A stretch of 64,000 nucleotides of DNA from a virus. Lineage: Duplodnaviria; Caudoviricetes. Positions within the stretch are counted from its first letter, which is position 1. Every line of letters begins with the position of its first letter. Location of the stretch: IMG/VR virus record IMGVR_UViG_3300028454_000171, positions 2,540 through 66,539 of that record; one strand, 5' to 3'. Position numbers and translations under genes: made by a program. Under the pieces are notes generated by a model. The model was not told where the DNA came from, did no database searches, and saw nothing but the letters and a program-made list of their open reading frames with translations. This document shows, in pieces, positions 35,500 through 62,166 of the stretch.

Positions 35500-35504
35500 C
35501 GTCG

Positions 35505-38188: not shown

Positions 38189-38251
38189 GACCTGCCATCA
38201 TCAGAGCCGGTGGGTCAGTTCCGGCTGACCAGCCTTTCGGCTGGTTTCGGC
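38189..38251 (-). ncRNA. Type II hammerhead ribozyme HH1 (predicted cleavage between 38,227 and 38,226)
   Basis: GCC-GAAAC-stem III-GUC-stem I-CUGAUGA-U-GGC with loop I/3' tail pseudoknot. Confidence 0.92.
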
Positions 38252-38253
38252 TA

Positions 38254-38505
38254 TCAGCGGGACAGACAAGCCAACGCCTCCTTGTACCCGTGGCAATACG
38301 TGTAGTACACCGCCGCTGCTTTCCGGCTATAGCATTCGTCCAGCGGCTTCTCATAGGACTTGACGATGAACGGTGCGCCTGTCCTATCATCCCGAACGAT
38401 GCTGCGTTCTATCTTGCCATCGTCGTGGTAGACGGTCATGATGCAGTACCAGTACAAGCTGTCCCCGCGTTGGAGCTGGGTGGCCTTTTCCATTGCGTTT
38501 TCCAT
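38254..38505 (-). CDS. Small hypothetical protein upstream of HH1
   Basis: ORF ends 3 nt before the ribozyme. Confidence 0.65.
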   Translation of the reverse strand: MENAMEKATQLQRGDSLYWYCIMTVYHDDGKIERSIVRDDRTGAPFIVKSYEKPLDECYSRKAAAVYYTYCHGYKEALACLSR

Positions 38506-38525
38506 ATCATCAAGTCCTTTCTGCT

Positions 38526-38735
38526 TCAGAACAACGCAGGGTCAAAGCCCAGCGGGTATTCGCCTTCGCTCACGGGGCGGAGAATCATGTTGTACTTGCC
38601 CCATTTTTCAATCATGTCCGGGTCTGTCTTGAATGCTTCTGCATCCTGTCGGTCATCACCGAAGAACTCCCAGCAAACCGGGTGTCCATTTTCCCTAATT
38701 TCTATCCAGAACTCTTTCTTCGCTGCTTCTGTCAT
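38526..38735 (-). CDS. Small hypothetical protein
   Basis: First ORF after the promoter at 38,815. Confidence 0.65.
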   Translation of the reverse strand: MTEAAKKEFWIEIRENGHPVCWEFFGDDRQDAEAFKTDPDMIEKWGKYNMILRPVSEGEYPLGFDPALF

Positions 38736-38787
38736 GTCGTCCGACCCCTTTCGTTCCGTTCAAGTGGTTGTGATTTATCTTGTCTTC

Positions 38788-38815
38788 ATCTTAACACGCT
38801 ATCTGTATATTGCAA
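38788..38815 (-). promoter_or_regulatory. Repeated promoter TTGCAA-16-TAAGAT with extended -10
   Basis: Identical core to 40,354-40,381, 61,077-61,104 and 61,530-61,557. Confidence 0.85.
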
Positions 38816-39088
38816 TAGTTTTTCGGAAAATTTTTCAAGAAAATATACTCACAATCGCAAATGCAGACCGGTAGGCTACTGAATCGCCAAAAAGCGGGCT
38901 TCTGATACTCACTGAGAGCGTATTTACGCAGCTTGCGAAGGGGATTGTATTCGGAGGCGGCATGGAAGCTCTGAGAATCAAAAAGCCTCTGGACGCTTGA
39001 TTTGAGAGGGCTGGCACTGTGCAAAACGCGATGCCTTTTTGGGGAAAACGCGGACACAAAAAAGACCCGCATCTCTGCGGGTCTTCGC

Positions 39089-39307
39089 TCATTCTGTTGT
39101 CTCAGCTCTGTCTCGTGCCATCGTTTCAGTGATGGCCCTGACCACGAAGCCTTGCATACTTTCACCCTGCGACTCTGCATGAGCGCGAACAGCATTGCCG
39201 TTTACCTCCGCATCTTTCCGCAGACGGATCAGCAACTTATCATATGCCTTCTGCTCGTAACGGCTGGTTGCAGCCATGTGCGCCTTGCTCTGTGCCATCC
39301 CAACCAC
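39089..39307 (-). CDS. Arc/ribbon-helix-helix-like small DNA-binding protein
   Basis: YEQKAYDKLLIRLRK...HAESQGESMQGFVVRAITETM. Confidence 0.65.
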   Translation of the reverse strand: MVGMAQSKAHMAATSRYEQKAYDKLLIRLRKDAEVNGNAVRAHAESQGESMQGFVVRAITETMARDRAETTE

Positions 39308-39373
39308 ATCCTTTCTGTGCTATCATCATAACACGATAGCAACAGCAGATGCAAGGCACGACAAGCAGCCAGC

Positions 39374-39703
39374 TTACCAGCACATAGCAATGTAGCCGCC
39401 CACATTCATGCCCCTGAAGCCGACATACACAGACTTTGCAAGCCGCTTGAGCTGGGTCATCTGCTTGTCAGTCAGACAGCCATTCTTGGCATAGTACCGC
39501 TTGAAACTTGCGATGTACCCATAGCCCGCCGGAACAATGCCGTGGCGGCTGCTGGTTCTTTCAGAGGGACAGTTCATCATGGCATCAACCAGTTCCTCCT
39601 CGCTGTCGAACAACTTATCCCATGACAGCTTCTTCATGCTGATGTCAAATGCACTCACGTCTTTCATTGTGCTCATCCTTTTCATCGTGTTCAGTTGCAA
39701 CAT
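39374..39703 (-). CDS. Hypothetical protein (start uncertain)
   Basis: ORF downstream of the structured element. Confidence 0.6.
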   Translation of the reverse strand: MLQLNTMKRMSTMKDVSAFDISMKKLSWDKLFDSEEELVDAMMNCPSERTSSRHGIVPAGYGYIASFKRYYAKNGCLTDKQMTQLKRLAKSVYVGFRGMNVGGYIAMCW

Positions 39704-39726
39704 GGCTCTTGTCAGCCGTCTCGCAT

Positions 39727-39876
39727 TTTCGATTGCTAGAATGTCTTCGGTCTAGCTGCCGCGTCCTTTTCTCCAAGTGTTACCCCGGCCACCCCGGATG
39801 CTTCCTGAAAAGTACCGAAAAGCTACTGAGATCTAAGCCCAGCTTTTTCCTTTCAAAAAGCTGAGGAAAAATCAAG
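39727..39876 (-). ncRNA. Unassigned conserved structured element, copy A
   Basis: 31-nt and 25-nt blocks identical to 62,240-62,305; covarying hairpins. Confidence 0.6.
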
Positions 39877-39911
39877 TCTTTTACCCACTTACTAGGTGCC
39901 GTTGCGGTAGT

Positions 39912-39974
39912 GACCTGCCATCATCAGAGCCGGTGGGTCAGTTCCGGCTGACCAGCCTTTCGGCTGGTTTCGGC
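39912..39974 (-). ncRNA. Type II hammerhead ribozyme HH2 (predicted cleavage between 39,950 and 39,949)
   Basis: 63-nt identity with HH1; complete catalytic core. Confidence 0.92.
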
Positions 39975-39975
39975 C

Positions 39976-40302
39976 TTAGAATTCACGAATATAAGAGAGG
40001 TTCATGCTCTGGATTTCTGCTACGAATTTTGCACCTCTTGCAATTTCATCGGCTGCTTTCAAAAGCTCCTCGGTGGTAGAATCCCCGCCCATCCTGCAAA
40101 TGCTGGCAGAGGCCTCGATGTCGATGTGCGCCTTGTGGCTTTTCCAGTCTGTCTTGTCGAAGTTATTGTTCTGCATTATCTGAATGCTGATATACTCATC
40201 AGAGGTGCGCTTGTTGCTCCATCCAAGTGAGTTTTCTTCAATCTCGAAGCCGTACTCAGATGCCTTGCTGCGAATGATTTCAGCGATTTCATTTCTAGTC
40301 AT
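39976..40302 (-). CDS. Hypothetical protein upstream of HH2
   Basis: AGGAGG RBS after the repeated promoter; stop 1 nt before the ribozyme. Confidence 0.75.
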   Translation of the reverse strand: MTRNEIAEIIRSKASEYGFEIEENSLGWSNKRTSDEYISIQIMQNNNFDKTDWKSHKAHIDIEASASICRMGGDSTTEELLKAADEIARGAKFVAEIQSMNLSYIREF

Positions 40303-40339
40303 CTTGGGTTCCTCCTGTCATTCTGTTCAGGTGTTATGA

Positions 40340-40626
40340 TTTATCTTGTCTTCATCTTAACACGCTATCTGTATATTGCAATAGTTTTTACGAATTAAAT
40401 TCAATATATTTCACTAAAAGTCGTAATGTCCACGGACGAAAATTTTCTGCTCTCTGTATGCCTTCTGGTTTCCCTCTGGTCAGTTTTCCTGCGATAGCCT
40501 AAAGAAGAATATACGAAAATTATTTTTGCGCCGTAGGAGCGATATTCTCTGAGCCTTTGTGTGATAAGGGATTGCGGGCTTCGGAAAAGCGGAGAGGGGG
40601 CGGCTATGTTCACCGGGAAAACACAC
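40340..40626 (-). repeat. Repeat R, copy 2, with promoter at 40,354-40,381
   Basis: Reverse complement of the blocks in copies 1 and 3. Confidence 0.9.
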
Positions 40627-40666
40627 GAAAGCAGAAAAATGCCGAGGGCTGAAAAGCCCCCAGCAA

Positions 40667-41149
40667 CTATTTCTTCGGCTTCCAAGTCCCGATGGCTTCG
40701 ATGCCGAACAGCAGCACCGCCATATCCTCGAAAGCCCTGTCAATATACCGATAGAACGTGCGGCGGTCAACGTCGCCCAGGCGGGCGGCTATCTCCTCGA
40801 TGGTCAGCCGCTCGTCCGAAATATACCGCAGATACAAGGCATCCCATCGCATCGCCTCGTGGCGTTCCACGGCACTCTCGCACAGGGCCTTGTATGCCGA
40901 CAGCATCCTGTCCACATGGCTCATCATCAATCCTGTCTTCCGCTTCAGCGAGCATATGGCGTTGACCTCCAACGCCTCCGGCGAGACGTGGGCGTAATGG
41001 GCTTTCAGCTTGCGGTAATTCTTCATCAGGAGCTTCACGTCATGGTATCTAGCATCCAGCTCCTCCTTGACGATGCTGTCCCGCTTGGCTAACGCCTCAA
41101 CCGCCGCAATGCGGGCTATTTCCGCAATTTCTTCCTTCTGCATGGGCAT
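40667..41149 (-). CDS. Late transcriptional activator-like protein (RinA/ArpU/sigma region-4 type)
   Basis: C-terminal HTH LTIEEIAARL...RRTFYRYI; last gene of the replication module. Confidence 0.7.
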   Translation of the reverse strand: MPMQKEEIAEIARIAAVEALAKRDSIVKEELDARYHDVKLLMKNYRKLKAHYAHVSPEALEVNAICSLKRKTGLMMSHVDRMLSAYKALCESAVERHEAMRWDALYLRYISDERLTIEEIAARLGDVDRRTFYRYIDRAFEDMAVLLFGIEAIGTWKPKK

Positions 41150-41158
41150 CCTCCTTTT

Positions 41159-42538
41159 CTACCTGCATTGTCTGCACAATCTGCTTATGCGGGCTTTGAG
41201 GGCGGCAAGCAGGGCTTCCTGCATATCGCCCTTGTTCTTCAGTGCCTCCATGACCGTCTCATCCATCCCGCCCTGCACGACAAGATGGTGAATGACCACT
41301 GGATGCTCCTGCCCCTGACGGTGCAGACGCTTGTTCGCTTGTTCATACTGCTCAAGGCTCCACGTCAACCCGAACCACACGGCATGATAGCCGCCCTGCT
41401 GCAAATTCAGTCCATAGCCGCAACTGGCAGGGTGGGCGAGAAGGATGTCGATTAACCCGGCATTCCAGTCTGCCTCGTCCTGCGCTTGCGAGTAGACCCT
41501 GACCCGCAGCTTAGTTTTCGCCAGCGTATCAAGCAGCCGGTCACGGTCATGCTTGAAATCGTAAAACACGAGGGCGTGCTGCCCGTTCAACTGCTCGACC
41601 AGTTCCATGAAGGCATCCAGCTTGCAGTTGTGGACGGGGACGACCTTCCTATCCTCGCTGTAAACCGCCCCGTTGCAAAGCTGCAACAGCTTGCCCGTCA
41701 GCACCCCCGCACTGCCAGCGGTGATCGTCTCATCGTTCACTTCCAGCAGCAGCTCGCGCTCCAACTGCTCATAGGCTTTCTTCGCCTTGGCATCGAGAGC
41801 CACAGGAACCTCGTTATAAACGATGTCCGGCAAGCTGATGTAGTCGCTGGCCTTCATGCTGATGCAGATGTCGCTGATGGCCCGCTTAATCATCTCGAAG
41901 CTGCCGTCCTTCGGCTCGTAATTGAATATCGTCGTCTGGTTTCTCCTGCCGGGGACGAAGTACCTGTCGCGGTAAGCACCAAGAGTCTTGCCGAGCCGCT
42001 GACCCCCGTCCAGCAGGAAAATCTGCGCCCACAGGTCTTCCAGCCCGTTGCTTGCGGGCGTACCTGTCAGCTCCACAATGCGCCGGATGCGAGAGCGGAC
42101 AAGGCGGAGAGCCTTGAACCGCTTGCTCTGGCTGTTCTTGAACGAAGAGCTTTCATCCAGCACTACCATGTCGAAGGGCCACGAATTCTTGAAGTGCTCG
42201 ACCAGCCACTGCGTATTCTCGCGATTGATGACATACACATCAGCAGGGGTGGCAAGGGCTTTCAGCCGCTGGCTTACCGTGCCGAGGACGGGGACAATCC
42301 GCATCATCCGCAGGTGCTCCCATTTCCTCGCCTCGGCAGTCCAGGTGGCCTCGGCTACCTTCTTCGGCGCGATGATAAGCGGCTTCGATACCTCCCACCG
42401 ATTGTAGCGGAGGTCGTGGAGGGCGGTCAGCGTGATGACAGTCTTGCCGAGTCCCATATCAAGTAGCAAGCCGACTGCCGCATTGCGAATCACATAGTCA
42501 ATGCAAAACTGCTGATAGGGGTACGGCTTAAATTCCAT
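41159..42538 (-). CDS. SNF2-family helicase
   Basis: DMGLGKT, VVLDESS, LTGTP, QANKRLHRQGQ. Confidence 0.93.
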   Translation of the reverse strand: MEFKPYPYQQFCIDYVIRNAAVGLLLDMGLGKTVITLTALHDLRYNRWEVSKPLIIAPKKVAEATWTAEARKWEHLRMMRIVPVLGTVSQRLKALATPADVYVINRENTQWLVEHFKNSWPFDMVVLDESSSFKNSQSKRFKALRLVRSRIRRIVELTGTPASNGLEDLWAQIFLLDGGQRLGKTLGAYRDRYFVPGRRNQTTIFNYEPKDGSFEMIKRAISDICISMKASDYISLPDIVYNEVPVALDAKAKKAYEQLERELLLEVNDETITAGSAGVLTGKLLQLCNGAVYSEDRKVVPVHNCKLDAFMELVEQLNGQHALVFYDFKHDRDRLLDTLAKTKLRVRVYSQAQDEADWNAGLIDILLAHPASCGYGLNLQQGGYHAVWFGLTWSLEQYEQANKRLHRQGQEHPVVIHHLVVQGGMDETVMEALKNKGDMQEALLAALKARISRLCRQCR

Positions 42539-42851
42539 TTTCCATCACCGCCTTCAGCCTTCGTATGCTATCATCGTTCTCAATCTCAGCCAGCAGAGCC
42601 TTGACCTCATCTGCGCCTTTGACAACTCTCACATCAGCCCCGCGTTTCTTCAACTGCTCGACCGTGTGCCGCTGCAATTTCGTCAGGCGGCCAGTCTCGG
42701 TCTTCAGTTCCGCAAAAATCACTCTGCCCGTGGCGGTCACGATGATTCGGTCAGGGACACCCGGCGTACCGGGGCTGACGAATTTCATGCACATCCCGCC
42801 GAGCTTCTTCACGCCATCGACCAGGCGACGTTCAATCTGTTTCTCAAGCAT
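42528..42851 (-). CDS. VRR-NUC nuclease
   Basis: GTPGVPDRI...FAELK..GRLTKLQ. Confidence 0.9.
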   Translation of the reverse strand: MLEKQIERRLVDGVKKLGGMCMKFVSPGTPGVPDRIIVTATGRVIFAELKTETGRLTKLQRHTVEQLKKRGADVRVVKGADEVKALLAEIENDDSIRRLKAVMENGI

Positions 42852-42854
42852 AGC

Positions 42855-43130
42855 CTAACCTCGCCAAATCCAAAATCCCTCACGGGCAACGATGCGCGGC
42901 CCCTCGAAGCGGCGGGCATTTTTTATGCTCTGCCGCGAAAAGCCCAACTTCGCACCCTCCTCGAAAATCGTCTCGCGCAGCATCGAGCCGTGCGACTTCA
43001 GCAGCCCTTCAAGCCACTCGATTTTGTCGGCCTCAGCGGCGTATTTTTCAACCGGAATCATGGCGAAACAGCACCTCCAAATCCTTATATTACTCAATAT
43101 AGGTATATTAGGTACATTAGGCATATACAT
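42855..43130 (-). CDS. Small hypothetical protein (start probably near 43,060)
   Basis: ORF coupled to VRR-NUC. Confidence 0.45.
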   Translation of the reverse strand: MYMPNVPNIPILSNIRIWRCCFAMIPVEKYAAEADKIEWLEGLLKSHGSMLRETIFEEGAKLGFSRQSIKNARRFEGPRIVAREGFWIWRG

Positions 43131-43370
43131 TATTTACCTATATTCTCTAAAACACCTATTCTTCTATTCTATTAAGATTAAATGTTTCAATGTTTCAATA
43201 TAACTATAAGTATAGATATATCAAGGCTTCACGCCGAAACAACCCCGAAACAAGCCCTGAAACTTGATAACAAACTAGCCCGAAACAATGGGTTGAATTT
43301 CGTGCCTAAACTTAGACTTTCGTGCCTAAATTGTTCTGCAAAGTCGAAGTTTCGCCCCTTTGGAAACATC
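43085..43370 (-). other. Putative replication origin downstream of the primase gene (copy 2 of the origin-like segment)
   Basis: AT-rich tract, CGAAACAA and AACATTGAAAC repeats; homologous to 13,470-13,740. Confidence 0.65.
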
Positions 43371-43373
43371 TCA

Positions 43374-45785
43374 TCAACGCTTTCTGCGGAATCCCCTTTG
43401 GTATCCGCAGTACCCAAAGCGCAGCCCGTTCGAGGTTTTTTCCCACATCGGCATCGACCTCAATATGTCATTTATCTCAGTCGTCGTCGTGTAGGACAAA
43501 TCCTTCATCTGCCCATTCAGCACCTCGCACCATATCTCCAAGGCGCATACCCTGTCGCGGGGGACGAGGTTTTCCGCAGTCCCTTCGCCGTTCAGGAACA
43601 TACGCCTCTTTTCCAGCGACCACTTCTGCCAGTCTTCCGGCACGGGCCTCTCAAGGAACTCAGCTATCAAGCCTTCGAGGTTCCCAGCTTCGCGGTGTTC
43701 CTCCTGCACGACCTTGGCCTCGTTCTCCACGTCGCCGATAAGGTGCAGGCTCTCGCCGATGCGCCACCGCATGACAGCCTCTGCCCAAATCTGGTCGATT
43801 TCCTGATTGAGCTGCTTCCAGATGTCCTTCTTCCGCTGGAACACCCCGACATCCACAGGCCAAAACCGGCGGTTGCCTGTCCTGTCCCGCAGGAACTCGG
43901 TTGTGTTCGTCGTACCGAAGAACACGCAGCATCGTGGTATATCCTTGACGTGCCGTCCGTAGGCCGCCCTGAAGCGGTCATACCGAAGGCTCAGGAACTG
44001 CTTGATGCGGGACACATCCGTCTTGCGGAAAGCGTCCAGCTCCTGTATCTCGATAAGCCATACGCCTTGCAGCAATTCGCTGGCTTCCTTGCCCTCGAAG
44101 GTGCGGATGCCGTCGTTGAACCACCCACGGCTCATGCGGTCGAGAAAGGTGGATTTGCCGAGGCCCTGCGGCCCAGAAAGAATCAGCATCGTGTCATACT
44201 TGCAGCCGGGGGTCATGGCCCGTGCTACTGCCGCCGTAAACGCCTTTCGTGTAACGGCCCGCACGTAGTTGCTGTTCGCGGCGCCAAGGTAGTCCACCAA
44301 AATCGTGTCCAGCCTCGGAACACCGTCCCATTGCAGCCCGCTGAGGTAGTTCTTCACGTCATTGAACTTGTGCTTCTCGCTGTGGAGCGACAGGGCACCG
44401 TCAATCTTCCCGTTGCCTGTAATCTTGTAAACCTTCTCGAAATACCAGTACAGGCCCTGATTGTCATTGTCGGCCCATGCCCTGCGGCCCGCGAATGGAC
44501 TCCACGGCAATTCGCCGAGGATTTCCCCGCGCCCTGCGAACTCGTTCAATGCGAACTTGCCACGAAGGTTCGGGTCATTTTCCAGTATCAGCCAAATGTT
44601 GTCGATGGTTGCCTTGATGGCCCCGGTCTGGCTGTTCAGTTCCAGCTCCGTCGTCCAGTCCAGACTACCCTCGTCATCTTCGTGTGTGGCAAGCTGGCCG
44701 AAGTCGCTTACTGCTGATTCAGCCCGTTCCTTGGCAAGCTGCCTCGATACCTTGGCATCTGCCACAGCCAGTTCGCACATCATCTGATAAGAGGGGAGGC
44801 GGTTCGCCGGGGTGTTTGCCCCGGCATCATCATCTGCGTCCCCGAACTTGTGAAGCCTCACGAGGTCGAACGCATTGACCAGCCTTCCGCTGCAAGGGTC
44901 AGTGGAGTGGTGCGAGTAAAGGAACAGTCCATTGTCGTAAATAACGGCACCACCAGTGGTGCTGCCGCCAAGGTAGGTATATCGCCCTTGCATTCCGTCC
45001 ACCGGCGCGTAAATGCCGGGAAGGAACGTCTCCATTGCGGCATATATGTCATAAGTCCGGCAGAACGCCCCGATGATGCCAGCCTTTGTCACGGGATCTG
45101 ATTGCTTTGTCGCGAGCTTGCGATAAGCGTTTTCCGAGCCAGGGACTTGCGGCCAGTTCGTAACGTCCTTCCAGTCACCGTACCTCTCTGTGACGGCTTC
45201 GAGGAGGCCGTCCACGGACAGCATAGGCTTGTCCTCGAAGGTGAAGATGTATTCGCCGTCAGCGCAGCAGCTCGGCCAGTACATCAAGCGTGATGCCTCG
45301 AACGTGGTTGGGTCTGCGAACTCCATGCCGATAGCCGCAGCCATATATCTGGCGGCTGGCTCGTACTCGTCCGCCGATGCTGAACGGTCGAATGGCAGCA
45401 GGATGCGGAGCCGGGGAGTGGTGGGGGAGTGCTTGCGTGTGGAGTAGATGCAGTACCCGCACCCAAGTCCCTCCACACGACGCAGCACATCCTCCGTGCC
45501 TCCCGGCGGAATGTTGTCGAAGTCCAGCGTGATGAGGTCACGTCCCGTAACCGCACCGGCTTTGCGGCGGGCGCCGGAGAGGCTGCCCGCCACGAACCCG
45601 CCGATGTCCTTCTTGTCGTCCTGCTCGGACTTCTTCAGGGCAAGGTACTCAGCCATCGTCTCCGTGGAACGGCTGGGAATACGGAGCTTTTCATAGAACT
45701 CCGACAGCATCATGGTCTGCGGCTGCCAGCTTACGCTCCGGCGATTGCTGCCGACGGATAAAATGATTTTGCGGTCATGCTGCAT
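43374..45785 (-). CDS. Primase-polymerase/VapE-like SF3 helicase (virulence-associated E family)
   Basis: YSTRKH, PRLRI N-terminus; ILSGPQGLGKST; FFGTTN; RTGNRRFWP. Confidence 0.93.
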   Translation of the reverse strand: MQHDRKIILSVGSNRRSVSWQPQTMMLSEFYEKLRIPSRSTETMAEYLALKKSEQDDKKDIGGFVAGSLSGARRKAGAVTGRDLITLDFDNIPPGGTEDVLRRVEGLGCGYCIYSTRKHSPTTPRLRILLPFDRSASADEYEPAARYMAAAIGMEFADPTTFEASRLMYWPSCCADGEYIFTFEDKPMLSVDGLLEAVTERYGDWKDVTNWPQVPGSENAYRKLATKQSDPVTKAGIIGAFCRTYDIYAAMETFLPGIYAPVDGMQGRYTYLGGSTTGGAVIYDNGLFLYSHHSTDPCSGRLVNAFDLVRLHKFGDADDDAGANTPANRLPSYQMMCELAVADAKVSRQLAKERAESAVSDFGQLATHEDDEGSLDWTTELELNSQTGAIKATIDNIWLILENDPNLRGKFALNEFAGRGEILGELPWSPFAGRRAWADNDNQGLYWYFEKVYKITGNGKIDGALSLHSEKHKFNDVKNYLSGLQWDGVPRLDTILVDYLGAANSNYVRAVTRKAFTAAVARAMTPGCKYDTMLILSGPQGLGKSTFLDRMSRGWFNDGIRTFEGKEASELLQGVWLIEIQELDAFRKTDVSRIKQFLSLRYDRFRAAYGRHVKDIPRCCVFFGTTNTTEFLRDRTGNRRFWPVDVGVFQRKKDIWKQLNQEIDQIWAEAVMRWRIGESLHLIGDVENEAKVVQEEHREAGNLEGLIAEFLERPVPEDWQKWSLEKRRMFLNGEGTAENLVPRDRVCALEIWCEVLNGQMKDLSYTTTTEINDILRSMPMWEKTSNGLRFGYCGYQRGFRRKR

Positions 45786-46141
45786 TCTTCTTCCTCCCGA
45801 TTCCAGCGGTCTTTCGGAATGCCGATGCTATTGAATACCTTGATGGGGATGTTCCACGTCTTTGCCATGGCAAGCTCTTTCGCCATGCCCTCTGACACCG
45901 TGGCTCCCCATTGCCAGACTTCATCGCAATCGGCCAGGAACGCAAGCCCCGCCTCAATGCCCAGCTTCCTCTCATCAGGGTCGTTGTCATCAAGGCAGTG
46001 GGGGTAGATAAGATGCGGGGCAAATGGCGCATAGCCATGCGAGAGCGCCCACCCACAGGCGAAATAAGCACGGTCGATATTTTCCTGAACCGTATGCCTC
46101 GCATCAGCGCGATACCGCGAGCAGATATATACCTTCTTCAT
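45731..46141 (-). CDS. DUF4406-like (nucleoside deoxyribosyltransferase-like fold) protein
   Basis: KKVYICSRY, FAPHLIYP, CDEVW, SEGMAKE. Confidence 0.7.
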   Translation of the reverse strand: MKKVYICSRYRADARHTVQENIDRAYFACGWALSHGYAPFAPHLIYPHCLDDNDPDERKLGIEAGLAFLADCDEVWQWGATVSEGMAKELAMAKTWNIPIKVFNSIGIPKDRWNREEEECSMTAKSFYPSAAIAGA

Positions 46142-46383
46142 ATCTTGACTCCCTCCTCAAGCATCATAGCCATAGCATCGTTTATCATGCTGCCGAATTC
46201 CTTCAGCGGTACTTTGCCTTCCTCGTGCAGGTTCTTTATGAGCAAGGCAATCGCGAAAGCAATCTGCGGGGGATTTCCCTTGCAGGCCACGGCCATTCCT
46301 GCGCCGTGCTTGCAGGAAACAATTCCGAACTCGCTTCCCTCCATCATTTTTTTTGTCAGGTCAATCAAGTCATTCCCTGTCAT
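46138..46383 (-). CDS. Hypothetical protein
   Basis: Overlapping-stop/start operon ORF. Confidence 0.6.
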   Translation of the reverse strand: MTGNDLIDLTKKMMEGSEFGIVSCKHGAGMAVACKGNPPQIAFAIALLIKNLHEEGKVPLKEFGSMINDAMAMMLEEGVKI

Positions 46384-46834: not shown

Positions 46835-46845
46835 CGCAGGGCCTC

Positions 46846-48045: not shown

Positions 48046-48170
48046 GGCAGTTGAAATGGTTGCAGGCGTGATGGCCCTGCTTCAACGCCCCACAGGGCGT
48101 ACACATGAGCTTCATATTTTCGGGCTTGAAGTGAGCATCGAATGTCGCGTTCATGACCTCTATGAACTTG

Positions 48171-52157: not shown

Positions 52158-52234
52158 ACTCTTTTCCTCCTCAACTCTTTACATTTCACTTTTTACGTTT
52201 TGCTCTTTACGTTTTACGTTTTGCACTTCACTTT

Positions 52235-53841: not shown

Positions 53842-53863
53842 GATTTTGACCCCTTTCATCACA

Positions 53864-54337
53864 TCAATAAAAATGGTTTTCTCGGTTTCCGCCGGAGCAG
53901 AAGAACCGAATATCTGACAACGGCTGGCATCCATTGTCGTGCCAGTCTGCCAATGTTTGCTCTGCAACAGCTATGTCATTTTCGGTTACGGGTCTTGACT
54001 GCTGCCAGTAGCCATTGAAGGCATTCGGCGTTTCTAGCACCTCAACCACGCTGTCCTTAAATCTGCTGTCGCTGACTCGGTTCAGGATGACTTCACACAC
54101 AAGCCGTTTGTCCTGCACCTTGTCTGAGTAACACTCACCAGCAAGCGTAAGAGCCATCGCCCTGACATCTTCTTCAGACCATCTGGGCTGTGCTTGCGGT
54201 ATCGGCTCCACAGGCTTCTGGATTTTTACAGCCATGACCGGCTTTTGAACTGGCTTTGCCTCATCTGTGGGCATGGCACATAAGGCGACTGTTGTAAAAG
54301 CAGCCACCGCTGTCACATCCTTTAGCGTTTCCAACCA
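53864..54337 (-). pseudogene. 3' half of a SleB-like cell-wall hydrolase gene split by the inversion
   Basis: ALTLAGE...VILNRV...F..SVVEVL...AF; no credible start of its own; in frame with 37,721 ORF across the junction. Confidence 0.75.
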
Positions 54338-54360
54338 TCTCAACGGTTTGCTGGATTTGC
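54337..54360. other. Right inversion junction / attP right arm
   Basis: ATCTCAACGGTT core plus arm ACGGTTTGCTGGATTTGC. Confidence 0.85.
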
Positions 54361-54383
54361 ACAAACGACTAGGAGGACAGAAA

Positions 54384-56072
54384 ATGGAAATGCAGGAAAA
54401 AATTGAGAAGGCTCGCAAGGACATCTGGCAAGCCATCGAGGACTATGGTCGGCACAGCAATTTGACCGATGTTCTTGACGATGTGACCGATGCGTTCGTG
54501 GACAGGCTGGCAAAAGACAGTGTGAAGGCCAAGCAGGAGCTTCGTGAAATGTTCCGCAAGTCTCCGGCATGGAACGAGGATTTGGATGCGCTGGTCATCA
54601 ATGGGACGCGGACACATGACCCGAACTACAGCAGGGTGCATGATTTGGCGTTTGATATATTAGATCCCGTATTTAATGGCAGGTGTAACCCAGATGATGT
54701 ATATGCGGCTGTAAAGCTATTCACGCAGTATGGCGGCGACCATTCTGAAGCGATTGCAGCTATTGGCAGATTGGCTCCGAAAGCATACGCCCCCGGCAAG
54801 AAAAAGAGCCGCATTTTCAAGGCAATGTGTCAGGCGTTGGGCATCGCTGATGAGACTGCCGGAAGCAGGTTCCAGCATCTCTATGCGCAGTTGGCAGATG
54901 AGCTGTCAGCCAAAAAGATTTCGTTCAAGTTGTACGTCAGCTTGAACCCGGCGCATTTCGTAACCATGTCGAATCCGAAGCAGGATAAGCGTGGGAACAC
55001 GATGACAAGCTGCCATTCGTTCAACAGTGCCGAGTACCAGTACAACAACGGTTGTTCTGGGTACGCACGGGATAACTGTACGATGATTGCATTTACCGTG
55101 TCAGACCCGAATGAGCCGGAAACGCTCAATAATCGCAAGACAACGCGCCAGCTCTATATGTACCGCCCTGGTAACGGATTGCTGTTGCAGAGCCGGATGT
55201 ATAACACGAGCGGTGGCACGGAGGGGGCGCAGACTGAATCGAAGCTCTATCGCGACCTGATACAGCGGGAAATCTCCGAATGCGAGGGTATGCCGAACCT
55301 GTGGAAGACGTTCAAGTATTACAACAACGGCAAGGGTATCAATTTCCGCGTCGGAGATGGCTTCGGTGGCTATCCTGACTGGACGTACAGCAACTTCGCA
55401 GCGATGGTCAGTCTCCGCCATGACCATGAGCTTGATTACAGGGTGTTCAACATTGGAACGTGGGGGCTGTGCATCTCTTGCGGGCAGGAAACCGGTTTTG
55501 GTCTTTACTGCGAGGATTGCAACGATGATGGACGTGCAGAATGTGCGGAATGCGGCGACCGTTATAGCGAAGATGACCTCTACACCGTGTATAGCAGCTT
55601 AGGTTGTGAAATGCGGGTTTGCCGCGATTGCCGGGACGAGTATTACGAGTATTGCGAAGACTGCGAGGAGTATTACCACCGTGATGCCGTTACGCAGTTA
55701 GCTAATGGCAGGTATGTCTGTAATGATTGCCGTGACAGGCATTATCGGATTTGCGATGAGTGCGGCGAGTGGTTTCACCGGGATGATATGAGCGTAGCAG
55801 TAGATGCGAACGGTTGTGAGGTTCATATCTGCAACGGCTGCCGTGATTACTATTATTACCATTACGTTGAGTGCGATGATTGTGGTCGGTATGTCCGCAG
55901 CAATCACGTCACGGATGCGCACCGTGAAGGTGTTGAAGTATCGGTTTGCCCGGACTGCATCAGCAGTTACTCTGAGTGCGATGAATGCGGCGACTGGTAT
56001 CACGATGATGATTTGCAAGATGGCTTTTGCCCGGATTGCATCAAGAAAAGAGAGGAGGCTGAGGCTGTATGA
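54384..56072 (+). CDS. Hypothetical protein with a C-terminal array of 12 CxxC motifs
   Basis: AGGAGG RBS; CxxC count by eye. Confidence 0.75.
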   Translation: MEMQEKIEKARKDIWQAIEDYGRHSNLTDVLDDVTDAFVDRLAKDSVKAKQELREMFRKSPAWNEDLDALVINGTRTHDPNYSRVHDLAFDILDPVFNGRCNPDDVYAAVKLFTQYGGDHSEAIAAIGRLAPKAYAPGKKKSRIFKAMCQALGIADETAGSRFQHLYAQLADELSAKKISFKLYVSLNPAHFVTMSNPKQDKRGNTMTSCHSFNSAEYQYNNGCSGYARDNCTMIAFTVSDPNEPETLNNRKTTRQLYMYRPGNGLLLQSRMYNTSGGTEGAQTESKLYRDLIQREISECEGMPNLWKTFKYYNNGKGINFRVGDGFGGYPDWTYSNFAAMVSLRHDHELDYRVFNIGTWGLCISCGQETGFGLYCEDCNDDGRAECAECGDRYSEDDLYTVYSSLGCEMRVCRDCRDEYYEYCEDCEEYYHRDAVTQLANGRYVCNDCRDRHYRICDECGEWFHRDDMSVAVDANGCEVHICNGCRDYYYYHYVECDDCGRYVRSNHVTDAHREGVEVSVCPDCISSYSECDECGDWYHDDDLQDGFCPDCIKKREEAEAV

Positions 56073-57046
56073 TTTCGTTGGAGAAGTTCTTGACACCGAC
56101 CCAGAAGGAACTGTATGCGCTGGTTCGCAAGATGTATAAAGGCCGCACGATTTGCTGCAAAAAGAGTTTTGTGCTTGTCTATGGTGAAGCGCCGGTTATG
56201 CTGGTGGCGCACATGGACACCGTGCATAACGAGCGGGTAAAGCATATCTGCACGACGCAGGATGGCAACATCCTGATGTCTCCCCAGGGCATCGGCGGTG
56301 ATGACCGCTGCGGGGTATATGCGCTAGTCAATGCGTATGAGGCGGCAGAGAAGAAGCCGTGGCTCTTATTCACCTGCGATGAAGAAATCGGAGGCAGGGG
56401 GGCAGATAACTTCTGCCGCAAGTATAAAGACGGAAAGTTGCCGAAAGAGCTGGCTGACCTGAAGCTGATAATCGAGATTGACCGCAGGGGCAGCGAAGAT
56501 GCGGTGTATTACAGTTGCGACAACAAGGAGTTCGAGGATTACATCACGAGCAAAGGGTTCAAGACGGCCAGCGGGTCGTTCAGCGATATTTCGTACATAG
56601 CGCCAGATTTGGGCGTGGCGGCTGTGAACCTTTCGTCCGGCTATTACAACGCCCACACGCAGCATGAGTACATCAATCGCCAGCATATTGATGCTGTAAT
56701 TGCGAAAGTGAATGAAATCGTGGCTGAAGCTGCGAAGCCTGATTTCCCGAAGTACGAATACATTGAGAAGAAGGTAGAGCTGGTCAGAAGGGTGTTCCCG
56801 TATGCAAGTCCGAGTAACTGGTGGAAACATGATAAAGATGACGATGATGGCGTTGTGACCCTGCATACGAACATCCCGAAGGACTTGCCGGTGAAGTATA
56901 AGACGATGTACGACGAACTGCTTGACTATTACGAGATGACAGACCTTGAGGTATACCGTGAAATGTATGGCAATGAAGTGATTGAGGAGATGTACCGCAA
57001 TGAAATTTGGCCGCAGTACAACGACGGATGGGGTGACTTGAAATGA
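56069..57046 (+). CDS. M28/M42-like zinc peptidase
   Basis: AHMDTVH, GGDDRCG, DEEIG, GYYNAHT. Confidence 0.85.
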   Translation: MISLEKFLTPTQKELYALVRKMYKGRTICCKKSFVLVYGEAPVMLVAHMDTVHNERVKHICTTQDGNILMSPQGIGGDDRCGVYALVNAYEAAEKKPWLLFTCDEEIGGRGADNFCRKYKDGKLPKELADLKLIIEIDRRGSEDAVYYSCDNKEFEDYITSKGFKTASGSFSDISYIAPDLGVAAVNLSSGYYNAHTQHEYINRQHIDAVIAKVNEIVAEAAKPDFPKYEYIEKKVELVRRVFPYASPSNWWKHDKDDDDGVVTLHTNIPKDLPVKYKTMYDELLDYYEMTDLEVYREMYGNEVIEEMYRNEIWPQYNDGWGDLK

Positions 57047-57570
57047 TTGAGAAGGGCATGACGATAAAAGATGCTGCCCATCAGTGGGTGCGCGAGTTTG
57101 ATGCAATCCAGCAGGGCCTGATTAAGAAACTGATGGATGCCGAGCCCGATGACTGGAATGAGATCACGCTGCCGGTCGCAGGAAACCGGGTGTACGTCTA
57201 TGACGAGCAGAATAGCGGTGAGGTCATCAAGCAGGGCAAGAGTAAAGACAAGTTCCGTGTCAAGCTGGACAGCGGCAAAGAAATCTGGGTCAAGAAGGGC
57301 GACTTCGATATTGAGTTTGATGAACGCCTTCCGATGTGGGGAACGATGTGGTCGTTCAGTGATTCGCTCGATACGCATTGGCTTGAGGAGGAAGATGGGC
57401 TTGAGGCCATGTCCGAATGCGGGTTCAGAATTTTTGAGAGCGAGGAGTTCGGCTGTTTCTTCGGTATTGATGGCGCTGGCTACGATTTTTATGAGGCTCA
57501 TTGGATTCCGCTCTACAAGGCTCGTGGCCTGAAGTGGCATGACCCGGAAACGGAGGTGAAAGCATCGTGA
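57043..57570 (+). CDS. Hypothetical protein
   Basis: Coupled ORF; FGIDGAGYDFYEAHWIPLY. Confidence 0.7.
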   Translation: MIEKGMTIKDAAHQWVREFDAIQQGLIKKLMDAEPDDWNEITLPVAGNRVYVYDEQNSGEVIKQGKSKDKFRVKLDSGKEIWVKKGDFDIEFDERLPMWGTMWSFSDSLDTHWLEEEDGLEAMSECGFRIFESEEFGCFFGIDGAGYDFYEAHWIPLYKARGLKWHDPETEVKAS

Positions 57571-59945
57571 GACTGAAGAACGCAGATGGACTTCTGCTGA
57601 AGAACATCTGGGCGTTCCTCGAAACCAGCGGGCGGCATGACCTGTCCGCTGGTCTTCGGGAACTGCTCGACAGATATGAGAAAGACAAGGCAGAGGTTCA
57701 GGCAGCTAACCGTAGACGTGCGCTGGAAAATCGAAAAGCGGGGTATACCTGGCCGTCCGTGCCTGTCCCGAAGACCAGCAAGTATTACGGGAAGGAGGCG
57801 GGGACGCATGAGTAAGAAGGAGTGGGCAGTCCTGATATTTTTCGTGGTGTTGCTGGTAGCTAGCTTTTCCGTTGGTGTAGCAATCTCGAATGACTGCCAT
57901 AGAATTCGTGGATTGCTGTGAGGAGGGTAAAAGATGGACAGGGTTTTGATGACGCAGGATGATGTGAAGATGCTGTTTGAATGGCTGCAAAAGCACAAGG
58001 CGCAGGTTCGTAAGTTTCCATGTCCGCTGAAAGCAGTTGAGATAGTGCTTACACATAATGCGATACGGATAAAGGGCATCCGCGATGGCAAGTGGCTGAA
58101 GCTCTATGTGTACCGTGGCAATGAGAACCTGGGCAAGATGGAGTTCGAGATTGACTTTGAGGCCCAGCATCTGCTGTTACGTAAATGCACGACGATTTCA
58201 TGTGCGTGTATTTGGTTTAGGAGGGCAGTATGAAGCAGAGCATATATTATCATGGCGAGCCGAATGCCAAGTATGGCATTTGGAAAGATGGCTGGAAGTT
58301 TGAGGTTTGTGAGGACACGCCGATGTTGGCGATGGCTCGCCTGTACCAGAAAATCGGTCATGAGGCAAAGAAGTATGAGCCGAGAAGATTGCCGAAAGGA
58401 GGTCTGCCGAAATGATTGCGATGGAGCAGGAACCCGGCATGAAGGGGTTTACGGAATTGACGACATGGGCATTCCTGCAACCCGGCTCTGCTGCCAAGCC
58501 GAACATTACGGCGTTGAAGTTAGCAGTGGCAGACCTTTGTAGGATGGTGACGCAGAAGACAGCAGGGCAGAAACGCCCCGGTTCCGACAAAAAGTATTGC
58601 GAACGTGACCTGAGCGTTGCCGAGAATTTGGAGCGTGTGAAGTTTACGATTATTGCTGAGGCGACTCTGCTGGTTCTGTCGGGCAAATTGGATGAATTGA
58701 AGGAGGATGCAAAATGAAAGTCAGCATGGAAGAAAAGAAGGCCGAAGCCATCAAGCGGATGAAAATGCTGAAGCTGTTCCCGGAAGTAATCAGGCAGTTT
58801 GAGCAGGATGGTTTGGTCAGCCTGAGTTATCCGCCCTTCGGCGCTCACTTCTGGCTCGATGACGAGCAAAAGAAAATCGTGGCCGCATTCGAGAAAGAGA
58901 ACGATGCCTTGGTGTTCACCGGCATCCGCAGTTATACGAACATCGGCATGATGGATTCGTTCCTGTTCGTGAGCGATTATGCGGAGGAATGGGAGATGGA
59001 ACGGCAGGATTTCAAGAACAGCACTGCGCTGGCCTACGTCTACAATCACGCTATGCCGGACTGCTCTGAGATGGGCTGCATTGGCATTGCGCCTACGCCC
59101 GCAGCAGGACTTCGCCGGACGTGGTAAGGGAGGTGATGAAGAATGGCCGAATGGTGTTTGGCTCACCCGTGGATGACATTTATTTTGCTGCTGGTTTTGT
59201 TCAGCAGCTTGAAAATCCATTTCGGCGTCGGTGCTTGGCAAAAAGAAATTCGGCTTGCAAATCGCATTCACGAGCTTGAAGAAATTCTTTGCCCTTGCGA
59301 ACAGCACGATTGGGTGAAAGTTGGTCAGAAAATGGTTGGTGGTACAGGCCACGGTGACGAGCAGTGCATTGAACGGTATGTTTGTCGCAAATGCAAGAAA
59401 GAAAAGGAGATGTAATAGGCATGAGGTACATGGTGCGTTTTAGCAAATTGAGTTATGGGCAAGTGGAAGTCGAAGCAAAGTCTGAGGAGGAAGCGAAGAC
59501 GATTGCATCCGGCAAAGCAGTCGATTATTTCGATGAGGAAATCACGGATGTTACGGCAGAGCCGATAGGCATGATAAATGCCGATACGATTCGCCGGATG
59601 GATAATCGCGAACTCGCAGAATTTCTCGTGGAGCGTTGTGGATGTCCGCCTGACCGTGATTCTGATAAATGCACAACCGGCGCTTGCGATTCATGCTGGT
59701 GGCGGTGGCTGACGAAAAAAGCTGAAACTGGTAACGGCAGAACGTATACGGTAACAGAATGCTGCCCGCATTGCCAGAGTGAGATTGAAATGCGGTGGAA
59801 TACTGATACCGATGGCTTCAAAGCGTTTTGTCCGGTATGCGGCAATCGTCTTATGCTTTGCGATGAATGCAGTCATGCGGAAAACAGCAAAGGCTGCGAT
59901 TATGATACGCGGTCTGATAGCTGTCGTTATAGCAGGAAAAGCTGA
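57567..59945 (+). CDS. Run of small coupled hypothetical ORFs (57567-57815, 57808-57921, 57934-58233, 58230-58415, 58412-58717, 58714-59127, 59143-59415, 59421-59945)
   Basis: Overlapping start/stop codons and RBSs; no recognisable motifs except a zinc finger in the last. Confidence 0.6.
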
Positions 59946-60445
59946 TGATTTCCGTGTATGAGTATGCCCCCTTGAAAGGCTTCGAGGGGACGTATGAGGT
60001 CAACAGGCTTGGCGACATAAAGCGTGTAGGCAAGGAAAAGTCGATGAAGCAAAGGGTTGCCGATGGTTATAAAGTTGTCACGCTGAGTGTTGGTGGAAAA
60101 GCTCGGCAGTATCGGGTACAAACGCTCGTAGGTAGAACATTCCTGCGTCCGCTCGAAAAAGGCGAATGCTATTTTCACAAGAATGGCGACAAGCTGGATA
60201 ACTGGGTGAACAATTTGGAAATACGCACCATGCGTGATGTATACCGAGATATTGGTAAAAGCGGAACACGAGCAAGACCTGTTGAGCAGATTGATGAAAG
60301 TGGCAAGGTCATAGACAGTTTCAAAAGTGCGAAAGCAGCCAGCGAGGAACTGTTCCTATCCTTGCCGCAAGTTCTGCTCAGGCTCAATCGAAAAATGAAA
60401 AGAAAAATCCCACCGTTTTTGCGGTGGGCACAGGGGGTGAAATGA
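59945..60445 (+). CDS. NUMOD4/HNH homing endonuclease-like protein
   Basis: FEGTYEVNRLGDIK, HKNGDKLDNWVNNLE, RPVEQID...FKSAKAAS. Confidence 0.8.
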   Translation: MISVYEYAPLKGFEGTYEVNRLGDIKRVGKEKSMKQRVADGYKVVTLSVGGKARQYRVQTLVGRTFLRPLEKGECYFHKNGDKLDNWVNNLEIRTMRDVYRDIGKSGTRARPVEQIDESGKVIDSFKSAKAASEELFLSLPQVLLRLNRKMKRKIPPFLRWAQGVK

Positions 60446-60819
60446 TGAGTTATTCGAGAGGCGAGATTTATTTTGTGGAGAAGTTTAAGACATTTGGCTC
60501 CGAGCAGTGGTCTGGCAGACCGGGCATTATTGTGTCTGGTGATTTGAACCGGCATAACAGCACGGTAGTGATGGTGTATCTTACGACGCAGCCGAAACGT
60601 GAAATGATTACGCACATTCCGATTTATGCAACAGGGCTGCCGAGCATAGCGATATGCGAGCAGATTCATACCGTGGATTGCAGACGTTTGGGACGGTTTT
60701 GCGGGAAATGCAGTGAGGCTGAGATGAAAGCCATTGATGTGGCTTTGAAAGCATCGCTTGGTCTGAACAGGATAGAAAAGTGCCTGTTATGCGGGAAAGA
60801 AACGGTATGCAAAGTTTAG
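60442..60819 (+). CDS. PemK/MazF-like endoribonuclease
   Basis: RGEIYFV...GSEQ..GRPGIIVS...EQIHTVD..RL. Confidence 0.85.
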   Translation: MMSYSRGEIYFVEKFKTFGSEQWSGRPGIIVSGDLNRHNSTVVMVYLTTQPKREMITHIPIYATGLPSIAICEQIHTVDCRRLGRFCGKCSEAEMKAIDVALKASLGLNRIEKCLLCGKETVCKV

Positions 60820-60820
60820 C

Positions 60821-61120
60821 TGTGTGCTTTCCCGGTGAACGCTGATGATAGCGCAGTTTTTTCCGAAGCACGCAATGATAATAACCACAAAGGCTCAGAG
60901 AATATCGCTTCTACGGCATGTAAATAATTTTTGAATAATCTCCTTTAGGCCACAGTCATAAAAACAACCAGACGCGCACCAGTAGCCCCCACAGGCTCTC
61001 AAAATTTCAGCCCGTGGACATTTACCTCTCGCCAGCACTCCTAGTGAAATTTTTTGAAAATAATTCGGAAAAACTATTGCAATATACAGATAGCGTGTTA
61101 AGATGAAGTCAAGATAAATC
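60821..61120 (+). repeat. Repeat R, copy 3, with promoter at 61,077-61,104
   Basis: Same conserved blocks as copies 1 and 2. Confidence 0.88.
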
Positions 61121-61154
61121 ATACAACAAGCCAGACGAGAGGAGCGCGATTGAC

Positions 61155-61421
61155 ATGACTAGCCCGATGATTACTGAGGTTCGCAAGTGGAATTCCATGA
61201 GCGTCAGAAACGTATGCGTAAACAATGACCTCTACACCTGCGGATGCAACGAGGACTACATCCGGCTGCTGGATGAAGTAAATCTCATGGAGCCGACGAA
61301 GGAAAACATCTACCGCGTGGCAACCGACATCGTAAAGCATAGCGATGAGCAGACCGTATCAAACGTGATGTTCCTGCTGGCCAATCAGGCTGTGACAGTT
61401 TCCTTCGCGATAGCAGAATGA
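61155..61421 (+). CDS. Small hypothetical protein upstream of HH3
   Basis: Stop codon abuts the ribozyme. Confidence 0.7.
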   Translation: MTSPMITEVRKWNSMSVRNVCVNNDLYTCGCNEDYIRLLDEVNLMEPTKENIYRVATDIVKHSDEQTVSNVMFLLANQAVTVSFAIAE

Positions 61422-61484
61422 GCCGAAACCAGCCGAAAGGCTGGTCAGCCGGAACTGACCTACCGGCTCTGACGATGGCAGGTC
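61422..61484 (+). ncRNA. Type II hammerhead ribozyme HH3 (predicted cleavage after 61,446)
   Basis: GAAAC, stem III CAGCC/GGCTG, GTC, stem I AGCCGG/CCGGCT, CTGACGA, pseudoknot GACCT/AGGTC. Confidence 0.93.
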
Positions 61485-61529
61485 GTAAGACTTCTAGTAA
61501 AATTTCTTGAAAATATTTCGGAAAAACTA

Positions 61530-61557
61530 TTGCAATATACAGATAGCGTGTTAAGAT
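61530..61557 (+). promoter_or_regulatory. Repeated promoter TTGCAA-16-TAAGAT with extended -10
   Basis: Identical core to the other copies. Confidence 0.85.
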
Positions 61558-61608
61558 GAAGACAAGATAAATCATAACCACTCAACAGAACGAAAGGCGG
61601 TAAGCAAA

Positions 61609-61797
61609 ATGAAAGACCACGAGCTGATGGAAATGATGGCAGCAATCGAGGAAATGAAGCGGAATGCAGAGCAGGTGGAACGCGAGAACGCATTGTACGA
61701 AATGAACCTGCAAGTAGCTGCTGACAGGCTCGAATCTTATGAGTACGGCAGCGAGGAGTACGAGAACAGCATGAACAGCTACCGTGCAATGTTCTGA
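61609..61797 (+). CDS. Small acidic hypothetical protein
   Basis: First ORF after the promoter. Confidence 0.65.
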   Translation: MKDHELMEMMAAIEEMKRNAEQVERENALYEMNLQVAADRLESYEYGSEEYENSMNSYRAMF

Positions 61798-61820
61798 TAG
61801 ATGGTAAGGAGGCGGCGGCA

Positions 61821-62108
61821 ATGAAGACCTTGACGATGCGCGAATATCTTGACCAGAAGACAGCATTCATCAACAAGCATTATGGCACCCGTGGCGGTCG
61901 CGAAAGCAGCGGTGTGGAGGGAGAAACCATCCGCAAGACGGTATGCTTCGAAGATGGTCATGCGTGGGAAGAAATCACGGAGCCTGTGTACGAGATGGTG
62001 GAAGTCGAGAAGCATGGCATGAAGCTCTTAGTGCAGGTCAAGTTTTACCGCACCGAAATATGGGATTCCGACAATCCCAGAAGCAGATATTATTATGAGC
62101 CAGCATAA
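61821..62108 (+). CDS. Small hypothetical protein upstream of HH4
   Basis: AAGGAGG RBS; stop 2 nt before the ribozyme. Confidence 0.7.
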   Translation: MKTLTMREYLDQKTAFINKHYGTRGGRESSGVEGETIRKTVCFEDGHAWEEITEPVYEMVEVEKHGMKLLVQVKFYRTEIWDSDNPRSRYYYEPA

Positions 62109-62110
62109 AA

Positions 62111-62166
62111 TCGAAACAGGGCGTTGGCCCTGTCCAGGGATGGTAGCGCTTCCCTGCTGATGATGA
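62111..62166 (+). ncRNA. Type II hammerhead ribozyme HH4, divergent sequence (predicted cleavage after 62,134)
   Basis: TC-GAAAC-AGGGC/GCCCT-GTC-CAGGGA/TCCCTG-CTGATGA-T-GA; stem II only 2 bp. Confidence 0.82.

Follow-up and report, generated by a model that had tools for sequence, protein, structure and literature searches.

Background

Clustered hammerhead ribozymes in prophages flank single genes or short gene blocks, and examples of such clusters cleave both in vitro and in Escherichia coli (Perreault 2011, PMC3088659), the role proposed for them being the processing of long transcripts into gene-length messages. The open reading frames (ORFs) flanked by these clusters are small and non-conserved (de la Pena 2017, PMC6155905), so that the placing of hammerheads at small accessory prophage ORFs is a known arrangement (PMC3088659, PMC6155905), and it is further known that bacterial twister and hammerhead ribozymes share gene neighbourhoods (the 2019 review of Weinberg, Weinberg and Hammann, PMC6765202). 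The role of the hammerhead and twister ribozymes of bacteria and phages is still called an open question (PMC6765202, PMC6155905). We report here the analysis of four type II hammerhead ribozymes, termed HH1 to HH4, that lie in a 64,000-nt stretch of DNA from a tailed phage (positions 2,540 to 66,539 of IMG/VR record IMGVR_UViG_3300028454_000171; the whole of this stretch is referred to as the window), each of them flush with the stop codon of a small ORF, and of a conserved structured RNA, termed R1, that follows two of them.

The locus resembles the clusters of Perreault 2011 in having several type II hammerheads within a few kilobases, in the small, mutually unrelated ORFs of unknown function that these accompany and, for HH1 to HH3, in a putative pseudoknot between loop I and the 3'-tail of the ribozyme. 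Its two hammerhead pairs, HH2/HH1 and HH3/HH4, 1723 and 688 nt apart respectively and in a phage gene context, are clusters by the definition used in that study (PMC3088659). It differs in that two of the hammerheads stand before a promoter and two before a conserved leader RNA, and in the sharing of one repeated promoter. What goes beyond the prior reports is the quantified, stop-codon-flush placement of the ribozymes, the hammerhead-then-promoter layout of cassettes that carry a repeated promoter and the presence of a conserved leader RNA, not described before, that follows ribozymes of interchangeable class. On balance we think it probable that these hammerheads are a generic, cis-cleaving form of punctuation, which would insulate the message of each small gene from what lies downstream.

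Four members of the type II hammerhead family

Membership of the class was judged by an Infernal covariance-model match to the Rfam family RF02276 (Hammerhead_II), whose gathering score is 37 bits. All four elements, which an initial annotation of this DNA had proposed to be type II hammerheads, exceed that score: HH1 (38186..38252, minus strand) at 44.3 bits, HH2 (39909..39975, minus strand) at 39.7 bits, HH3 (61421..61487, plus strand) at 38.8 bits and the sequence-divergent HH4 (62109..62175, plus strand) at 39.9 bits, the last of which is lost to the speed filters in 64-kb Rfam scans and recovered, with this score, when 0.5 kb or 10 kb is scanned. The core pattern GAAAC..GTC..CTGANGA has four matches in the window, against a chance expectation of 0.41, and these are exactly HH1 to HH4. 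Laxer Rfam scans of 33.5-43.5 kb and 54-64 kb found no fifth ribozyme, and a candidate fifth hammerhead at about 19666-19727 scored 14.7 bits, far under the cut-off, and is taken to be a chance match.

The catalytic core, judged as C3 U4 G5 A6 N7 G8 A9, G12 A13 A14, the A15.1-U16.1 pair and H17 at the cleavage site, is complete in all four, with CUGAUGA (CUGACGA in HH3), GAAA and GUC correctly placed. In the cmscan alignments three helices surround this core, stems I and III being closed by loops and stem II being open. HH1, HH3 and HH4 take this three-way junction as their minimum-energy fold (z-scores -2.4 to -3.4), whereas that of HH2 is a competing structure. HH1 and HH2 are 100% identical over 64 nt (repeat family D7) and HH3 is 97% identical, with two differing positions, while HH4 has only the core in common with these three and differs from them in its stems, which agrees with its first description as a case of natural covariation. 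The loop I/3'-tail pseudoknots likewise read as they had been described, namely UGACC/GGUCA (5 bp) in HH1 and HH2 and UGACCU/AGGUCG (6 bp, with one pair changed) in HH3, and the extra U between A9 and stem II is present in each of the four. Stem II of HH4 is extended in the fold to about 10 bp and takes in the final sense codons and the TAA stop of the upstream ORF. Cleavage is predicted after C 38227 in HH1, after 39950 in HH2, after 61446 in HH3 and after 62134 in HH4, the same positions as were predicted originally. HH1 to HH4 are ordinary members of RF02276.

In work by De la Pena and Flores from 2001 (J Biol Chem 276:34586), an extra U at this point in viroid hammerheads reportedly proved tolerated or even beneficial; HH1 to HH4, and with them the whole of the IMG/VR subclass considered below, share this feature with those hammerheads, which are of viroid origin. 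That viroid hammerheads may carry an extra nucleotide between A9 and G10.1 is on record through the same work, which is reference 17 of PMC2632901.

Placement of the ribozymes at stop codons

The distance from stop codon to Rfam match is 0-1 nt for all four hammerheads, the upstream ORFs ending at 38254, 39976, 61421 and 62108, and the original observation that each ribozyme is placed right after the stop codon of a small ORF is thus borne out by measurement. At HH3 the two overlap, the first base of the ribozyme being the last A of the TGA stop codon of ORF88. The predicted cut falls 25-27 nt past the stop and would leave a 3' untranslated region that ends in the stem III hairpin.

This placement is not peculiar to the phage of the window. 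A pattern search recovered the same hammerhead subclass from at least 117 IMG/VR loci, with about one expected by chance on a rough estimate; the pattern required the extra U after A9, hence the presence of this U at all of the at least 117 loci. When these were dereplicated to 43 upstream contexts, HH1 to HH4 included, an ORF of at least 40 codons was found to end 2-9 nt before GAAAC in 31 of the 43 (72%), as compared with 4.6% at random positions in the same loci, and a converging ORF lay equally close on the far side in 1 of 42 contexts. Often the 5' strand of stem II, UAGCC, itself contains the TAG stop, and the next start codon is far less tightly placed, 11-309 nt away. The ORFs themselves do not form a common family, being diverse across the 31 contexts, with scattered matches to AcrIC5 (two), DarA_C, DnaC-like loaders and SprT; these matches hint at early or anti-defence genes and at no single partner. 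We did not find this stop-codon placement of hammerheads in the literature that we read, and the term 'stop codon' is absent from Perreault 2011 (PMC3088659) and from the 2019 review (PMC6765202).

A conserved RNA behind exchangeable ribozymes

R1 begins 32 nt 3' of HH2 (39727..39876, minus strand; 157.9 bits with the R1 covariance model) and 19 nt 3' of HH4 (62195..62336, plus strand; 145.2 bits). The two copies, of about 145 nt, are 78% identical and consist of two invariant blocks with variable, compensating hairpins. R1 is also found on one metagenome contig and on three contigs of metagenome-assembled genomes (MAGs), and the covariance model then added three more copies. In the eight distinct sequences of the covariation set, with the alignment fitted to the model, 91.3% of cells pair and 14 pairs are changed on both sides, at least one such pair occurring in each of the five helices; none of 500 shuffles reaches these values, and slid controls pair in 50-64% of cells. 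No Rfam 15 family matches over 39727-39876 or 62195-62336 at E values up to 1-10.

Since R1 stands before unrelated ORFs, it looks like a portable 5' leader. At the sites that were read an ORF starts 15-60 nt 3' of R1, these being the HH2 copy, where the likely next start is about 60 nt on, and the contigs L147, L149 and L157. The copy behind HH4 runs instead into an att-like junction at 62428, 92 nt past its end. R1 was rejected as a general partner of hammerheads, being absent from 142 other loci, 117 hammerhead loci among them, and it occurs in 3 of the 151 Selenomonadaceae-family genomes searched. The suggestion that R1 is an RNA anti-CRISPR found no support; PMC10651486 uses an engineered hammerhead only.

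Of the nine copies of R1, seven have a ribozyme 19-166 nt upstream, always on the same strand; by our own grouping this makes five out of six distinct contexts. The ribozyme is a type II hammerhead, above the cut-off, at the two window copies and in L150 and L152, and a twister-P5 ribozyme in L147 (723-795, minus strand; 53.7 bits), L149 (333-400; 49.9 bits) and L156 (1386-1458; 42.1 bits). About 11, 1 and 0 nt, respectively, separate these twisters from the stop of a small ORF, so that in the prophage-like DNA of rumen Selenomonadaceae twister-P5 obeys the same rule of placement as the hammerheads. Much as in the neighbourhoods that twister and hammerhead ribozymes are known to share (PMC6765202), two unrelated self-cleaving classes are thus found in the same kind of position, which implies a need for cleavage and not for a particular fold; unlike in those neighbourhoods, what the two classes share here is a structured RNA directly downstream and not a protein-coding family. 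With a twister in the place of the hammerhead before R1, it is cleavage itself that appears to matter at this site. The presence of R1 after HH2 and HH4, a link absent from the initial annotation, is the strongest clue to the function of these two hammerheads. Compared with L152, moreover, HH4 is 98.5% and R1 97.2% identical, while ORF62 and ORF95, the ORFs upstream of HH4, are about 91% identical in nucleotides; conservation of the RNA elements above that of the neighbouring ORFs fits purifying selection on them.

In L157 and L158 no Rfam-recognised ribozyme lies upstream of R1. A 70-nt GC-rich spacer of nested helices precedes R1 in these two contigs (L157:1660-1730, minus strand), after an ORF that by eye resembles a ribbon-helix-helix protein, and this spacer may conceal a self-cleaving motif so far unrecognised or have no significance.

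Cassettes with a repeated promoter

The small ORFs belong to transcription units that start from a sigma-70-like promoter, of which the window has six copies, 82-94% identical among themselves and in both orientations. It consists of TTGCAA, a 17-nt spacer and an extended -10 element, TGTTAAGAT, with an A/T-rich dyad upstream. On the minus strand, the copy P40385 (40335..40421, from repeat and alignment) would drive a unit made up of ORF108 (39976..40302), HH2, R1, ORF109 and ORF72, closed by a canonical intrinsic terminator (39061..39086). Also on the minus strand, P38820 (38783..38849; repeat families D1, D4 and I3, alignment A2) precedes ORF69 (38526-38735), ORF83 (38254..38505) and HH1, directly after which comes a variant of the promoter (38110..38166) that reads TTGACC, 17 nt, TAAGAT and has the same upstream dyad. 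On the plus strand, P61080 (61037..61123, from repeat and alignment) is followed by ORF88 (61155..61421; conserved in L152) and HH3, and P61530 (61490..61576, likewise from repeat and alignment), directly behind HH3, by ORF62 (61609-61797), ORF95 (61821-62108), HH4, R1 and the att-like junction. The cassette ORFs have plausible ribosome-binding sites.

The promoter-ORF-ribozyme cassette of the initial annotation is therefore real as a layout, with a repeated promoter and no strong terminator after the hammerhead, and its ORFs are indeed unrelated to each other; it requires amendment in that two of the four cassettes hold two ORFs. Strong intrinsic terminators are lacking 3' of any of HH1 to HH4, where a scan gives a single weak terminator-like hairpin, over the tail of HH1, whereas canonical terminators end the units that do not end in a hammerhead (40665-40640, 39086-39061 and a hairpin with T-run at about 35460-35499). 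Which of the three roles initially put forward for the ribozymes applies, that is, replacement of a terminator, setting of mRNA stability or release of a downstream RNA with a 5'-OH end, is a question on which sequence alone cannot separate the candidates.

ORF83 has no match in Pfam or PHROG, and a possible relative of it, judged by eye from the DNA alone, is encoded in L147. ORF108 has 25 homologues in IMG/VR, at 55-73% identity and all in another genomic context. A hammerhead follows the gene at none of these 25 loci, so that conservation of the ribozyme together with ORF108 was rejected, and in the three relatives that were read (L006 and L010 among them, the neighbourhood of L147 aside) a plain hairpin comes after the gene. 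The small cassette that holds the ORF108 homologue in L006 and L010 has a gutted copy in the window at about 63540-63710, the ORF itself now being at 39976-40302.

Two further observations concern the promoters. The sixth copy, in a unit at 34928-35500, drives two very small, hydrophobic-looking ORFs, and this unit ends in a canonical terminator and has no hammerhead. The variant behind HH1 aims (37905-38140, minus strand) into the 3' end of a converging Cro operon, with a terminator-like hairpin at 37924-37911; provided that the 38-54 kb segment really has this orientation, an antisense RNA some 200 nt long could result.

Proposed mechanism and its alternatives

The punctuation reading that we favour takes the four elements to be functional type II hammerheads in the early or accessory region of a temperate phage. 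A hammerhead would be transcribed together with one or two small ORFs from the repeated, host-type promoter and, in vivo, would cut the RNA 25-27 nt past the stop codon. This would leave an upstream message whose 3' end is the 7-bp stem III hairpin with a 2',3'-cyclic phosphate, and a downstream RNA that begins with a 5'-OH and the stem I hairpin. The two products should separate because only the 3-bp stem II and a pseudoknot of 5-6 bp join them, and with their parting the cut would be effectively irreversible. Such punctuation would need no protein, and the fate of the small-gene message, in its stability or translation, would be uncoupled from what follows. RiboJ-type synthetic insulators and the RNase III sites between the early genes of phage T7 act in this way, cutting between units to give defined, hairpin-capped ends and independent expression. 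By analogy the window hammerheads would work alike, with the differences that they are natural, self-contained (T7 needs a host RNase) and set at the stop codon.

The benefit would differ with the setting. HH1 and HH3 are in the position of a terminator, before the next promoter; with a promoter region behind them, the gain there would be mainly for the upstream message or for insulating the next unit. HH2 and HH4 precede the R1 leader, and a cut there would protect the folding or function of R1 from translation upstream. The identical sequence of HH1 and HH2 in two settings argues against a setting-specific mechanism built into the ribozyme. A narrower proposal, that R1 represents a new class of portable leader RNA which works only once it has been severed from the translated upstream message by any self-cleaving ribozyme, is tentative, and we regard it as possible rather than expected.

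Several points weigh against punctuation of this kind. In HH4 the pairing of loop I with the tail amounts to at most 3 bp and makes no convincing pseudoknot, and in all four hammerheads the 10.1-11.1 pair beside the core can form only with the extra U bulged out, a Watson-Crick 10.1-11.1 pair adjoining the core being the acceptance rule of Perreault 2011. Many phage hammerheads are squeezed between two genes, and genome compaction may explain part of the stop adjacency. The R1 copies of L157 and L158, divergent, near-identical to one another and from one genome, lack a recognised ribozyme, and the spacing of 19-166 nt between ribozyme and R1 means that the ribozyme does not set a precise 5' end for R1. 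Finally, HH3 is identical in L152 but lies there inside a stretch of about 99-100% identity, so that its conservation is uninformative.

Of the other explanations, one supposes that the ribozyme triggers termination: cleavage would expose a 5'-OH end, from which a 5'-3' exonuclease of the RNase J type would degrade the RNA until it dislodged the polymerase, making HH1 and HH3 true replacements for a terminator. RNase J1 degrades the 5'-OH fragment that the glmS ribozyme releases, and in Bacillus this enzyme can clear polymerases that have stalled. The division of the window into hammerhead-ended units that lack a strong terminator and other units that have canonical ones would be accounted for, as would the fresh promoter directly after HH1 and HH3. 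The stable stem I hairpin at the downstream 5' end would, on the other hand, impede such an exonuclease, and HH2, whose sequence is that of HH1, presumably shares one transcript with the R1 copy and the ORF that come after it; termination by this route seems unlikely.

The adjacency of stop codon and ribozyme invites a second explanation, in which a ribosome that terminates there sits over the 5' strand of stem II and the GAAA core, so that cutting depends on upstream translation; at HH4 the stem that contains the stop would be melted as well. Here the 0-1 nt spacing at all four sites, the last codons and TAA stop within stem II of HH4, the adjacency in 72% of contexts of the subclass and the twisters of L149 and L156, which start 0-1 nt after a stop, are all in favour. 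Adjacency is by itself no proof of regulation, however; cleavage is irreversible and on nascent RNA probably faster than the arrival of a ribosome, and HH1 to HH3 are without an alternative pairing that competes with the ribozyme fold. We judge gating by translation improbable.

In a third explanation the role lies with the DNA, the repeats of hammerhead and promoter being recombination joints by which accessory cassettes are shuffled, with RNA cleavage incidental or vestigial. The 97-100% identity of HH1 to HH3 and the 82-94% identity of the promoter copies, in both orientations, are what such joints would look like, ORF108 does occur elsewhere in 25 related phages with a gutted original cassette left at about 63540-63710, and the promoter behind HH3 in L152 is closer to another window copy, which suggests gene conversion. 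Yet HH4 keeps the whole core and fold with none of the stem sequence of HH1 to HH3, the stems of the subclass covary across dozens of unrelated phages, and the replacement of hammerhead by twister before R1 argues for selection on RNA cleavage, so that a purely DNA-level role appears quite improbable. Least probable by far is that paired hammerheads (HH2/HH1, HH3/HH4) excise the RNA between them for circularisation by host RtcB, as in retrozymes, for which no evidence was found: although the members of each pair are on one strand, and 5'-OH and 2',3'-cyclic phosphate ends are RtcB substrates, the stretch from HH2 to HH1 contains an intrinsic terminator and promoters, the segments enclosed by the pairs carry ordinary ORFs with their own promoter, and a search for circular or spliced products of clustered hammerheads found none (Perreault 2011, PMC3088659).

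Phage context and junctions

The source record is an IMG/VR virus of 66.5 kb, estimated to be 75% complete. The window encodes a serine integrase (35505-36905, minus strand, from protein annotation) as well as a CI-like repressor, a Cro-like protein, a helicase, a primase-helicase, an HNH endonuclease and a MazF-like protein, and from these genes the phage would be temperate. The contigs closest to it in DNA sequence come from MAGs of rumen Selenomonas and Schwartzia, and the host of the phage is probably a member of the rumen Selenomonadaceae. A blastn search with 38100-40450 against the INPHARED phages found no relatives, and exact words from a hammerhead and from R1 had no IMG/VR matches. 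The MazF-like growth inhibitor gene (60424-60819; phrog_1936, 2.2e-24) is just upstream of the P61080 cassette.

Homology of 95% to the prophage contigs L150 and L152 ends exactly at 62428. The 20-nt word at 62404-62423 is repeated at 37950-37969 (minus strand), where it abuts the 12-nt word ATCTCAACGGTT, itself repeated at 54337-54348 (plus strand). This arrangement resembles a single intact att-like site (37941-37969, minus strand) close to the integrase, with the two halves of the site bounding an 8.1-kb block that carries HH3 and HH4, and the repeats suggest integration or inversion events. The conserved part of a macro-domain ORF (62385-62876; PF01661, 2.2e-48) begins at the 62428 junction, its first 13 or so codons deriving from the phage side. 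Integration may have truncated a host gene here, in which case transcripts that run past HH4 and R1 would enter it. Beyond this, 62931-63710 holds remnants of a second phage-like region, namely a fragment (about 62931-63050) that resembles the C-terminus of a terminase large subunit, a minus-strand gene and the gutted copy of the small ORF108-type cassette.

The window also contains a diversity-generating retroelement (26487-30339) with 130-nt VR/TR repeats at 28052-28181 and 28782-28911 that are 82% identical. An RT-2 RNA (RF03077, 116.6 bits, 28915-29150) lies 3' of this pair, followed by an ORF of 467 amino acids, presumably the reverse transcriptase.

Significance

The locus is a compact test bed, since one and the same ribozyme sequence is used there both ahead of a promoter and ahead of a conserved leader, and relatives provide a natural swap for a twister in front of that leader. 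The question of what such ribozymes do is thereby narrowed to the effect that a cut at the stop codon has on the upstream message and on the downstream leader. If the tentative proposal for R1 is true, R1 together with its ribozyme would be a natural, modular insulator plus leader for the accessory genes of Selenomonadaceae prophages, and the hammerheads and twisters of phages would gain a defined job.

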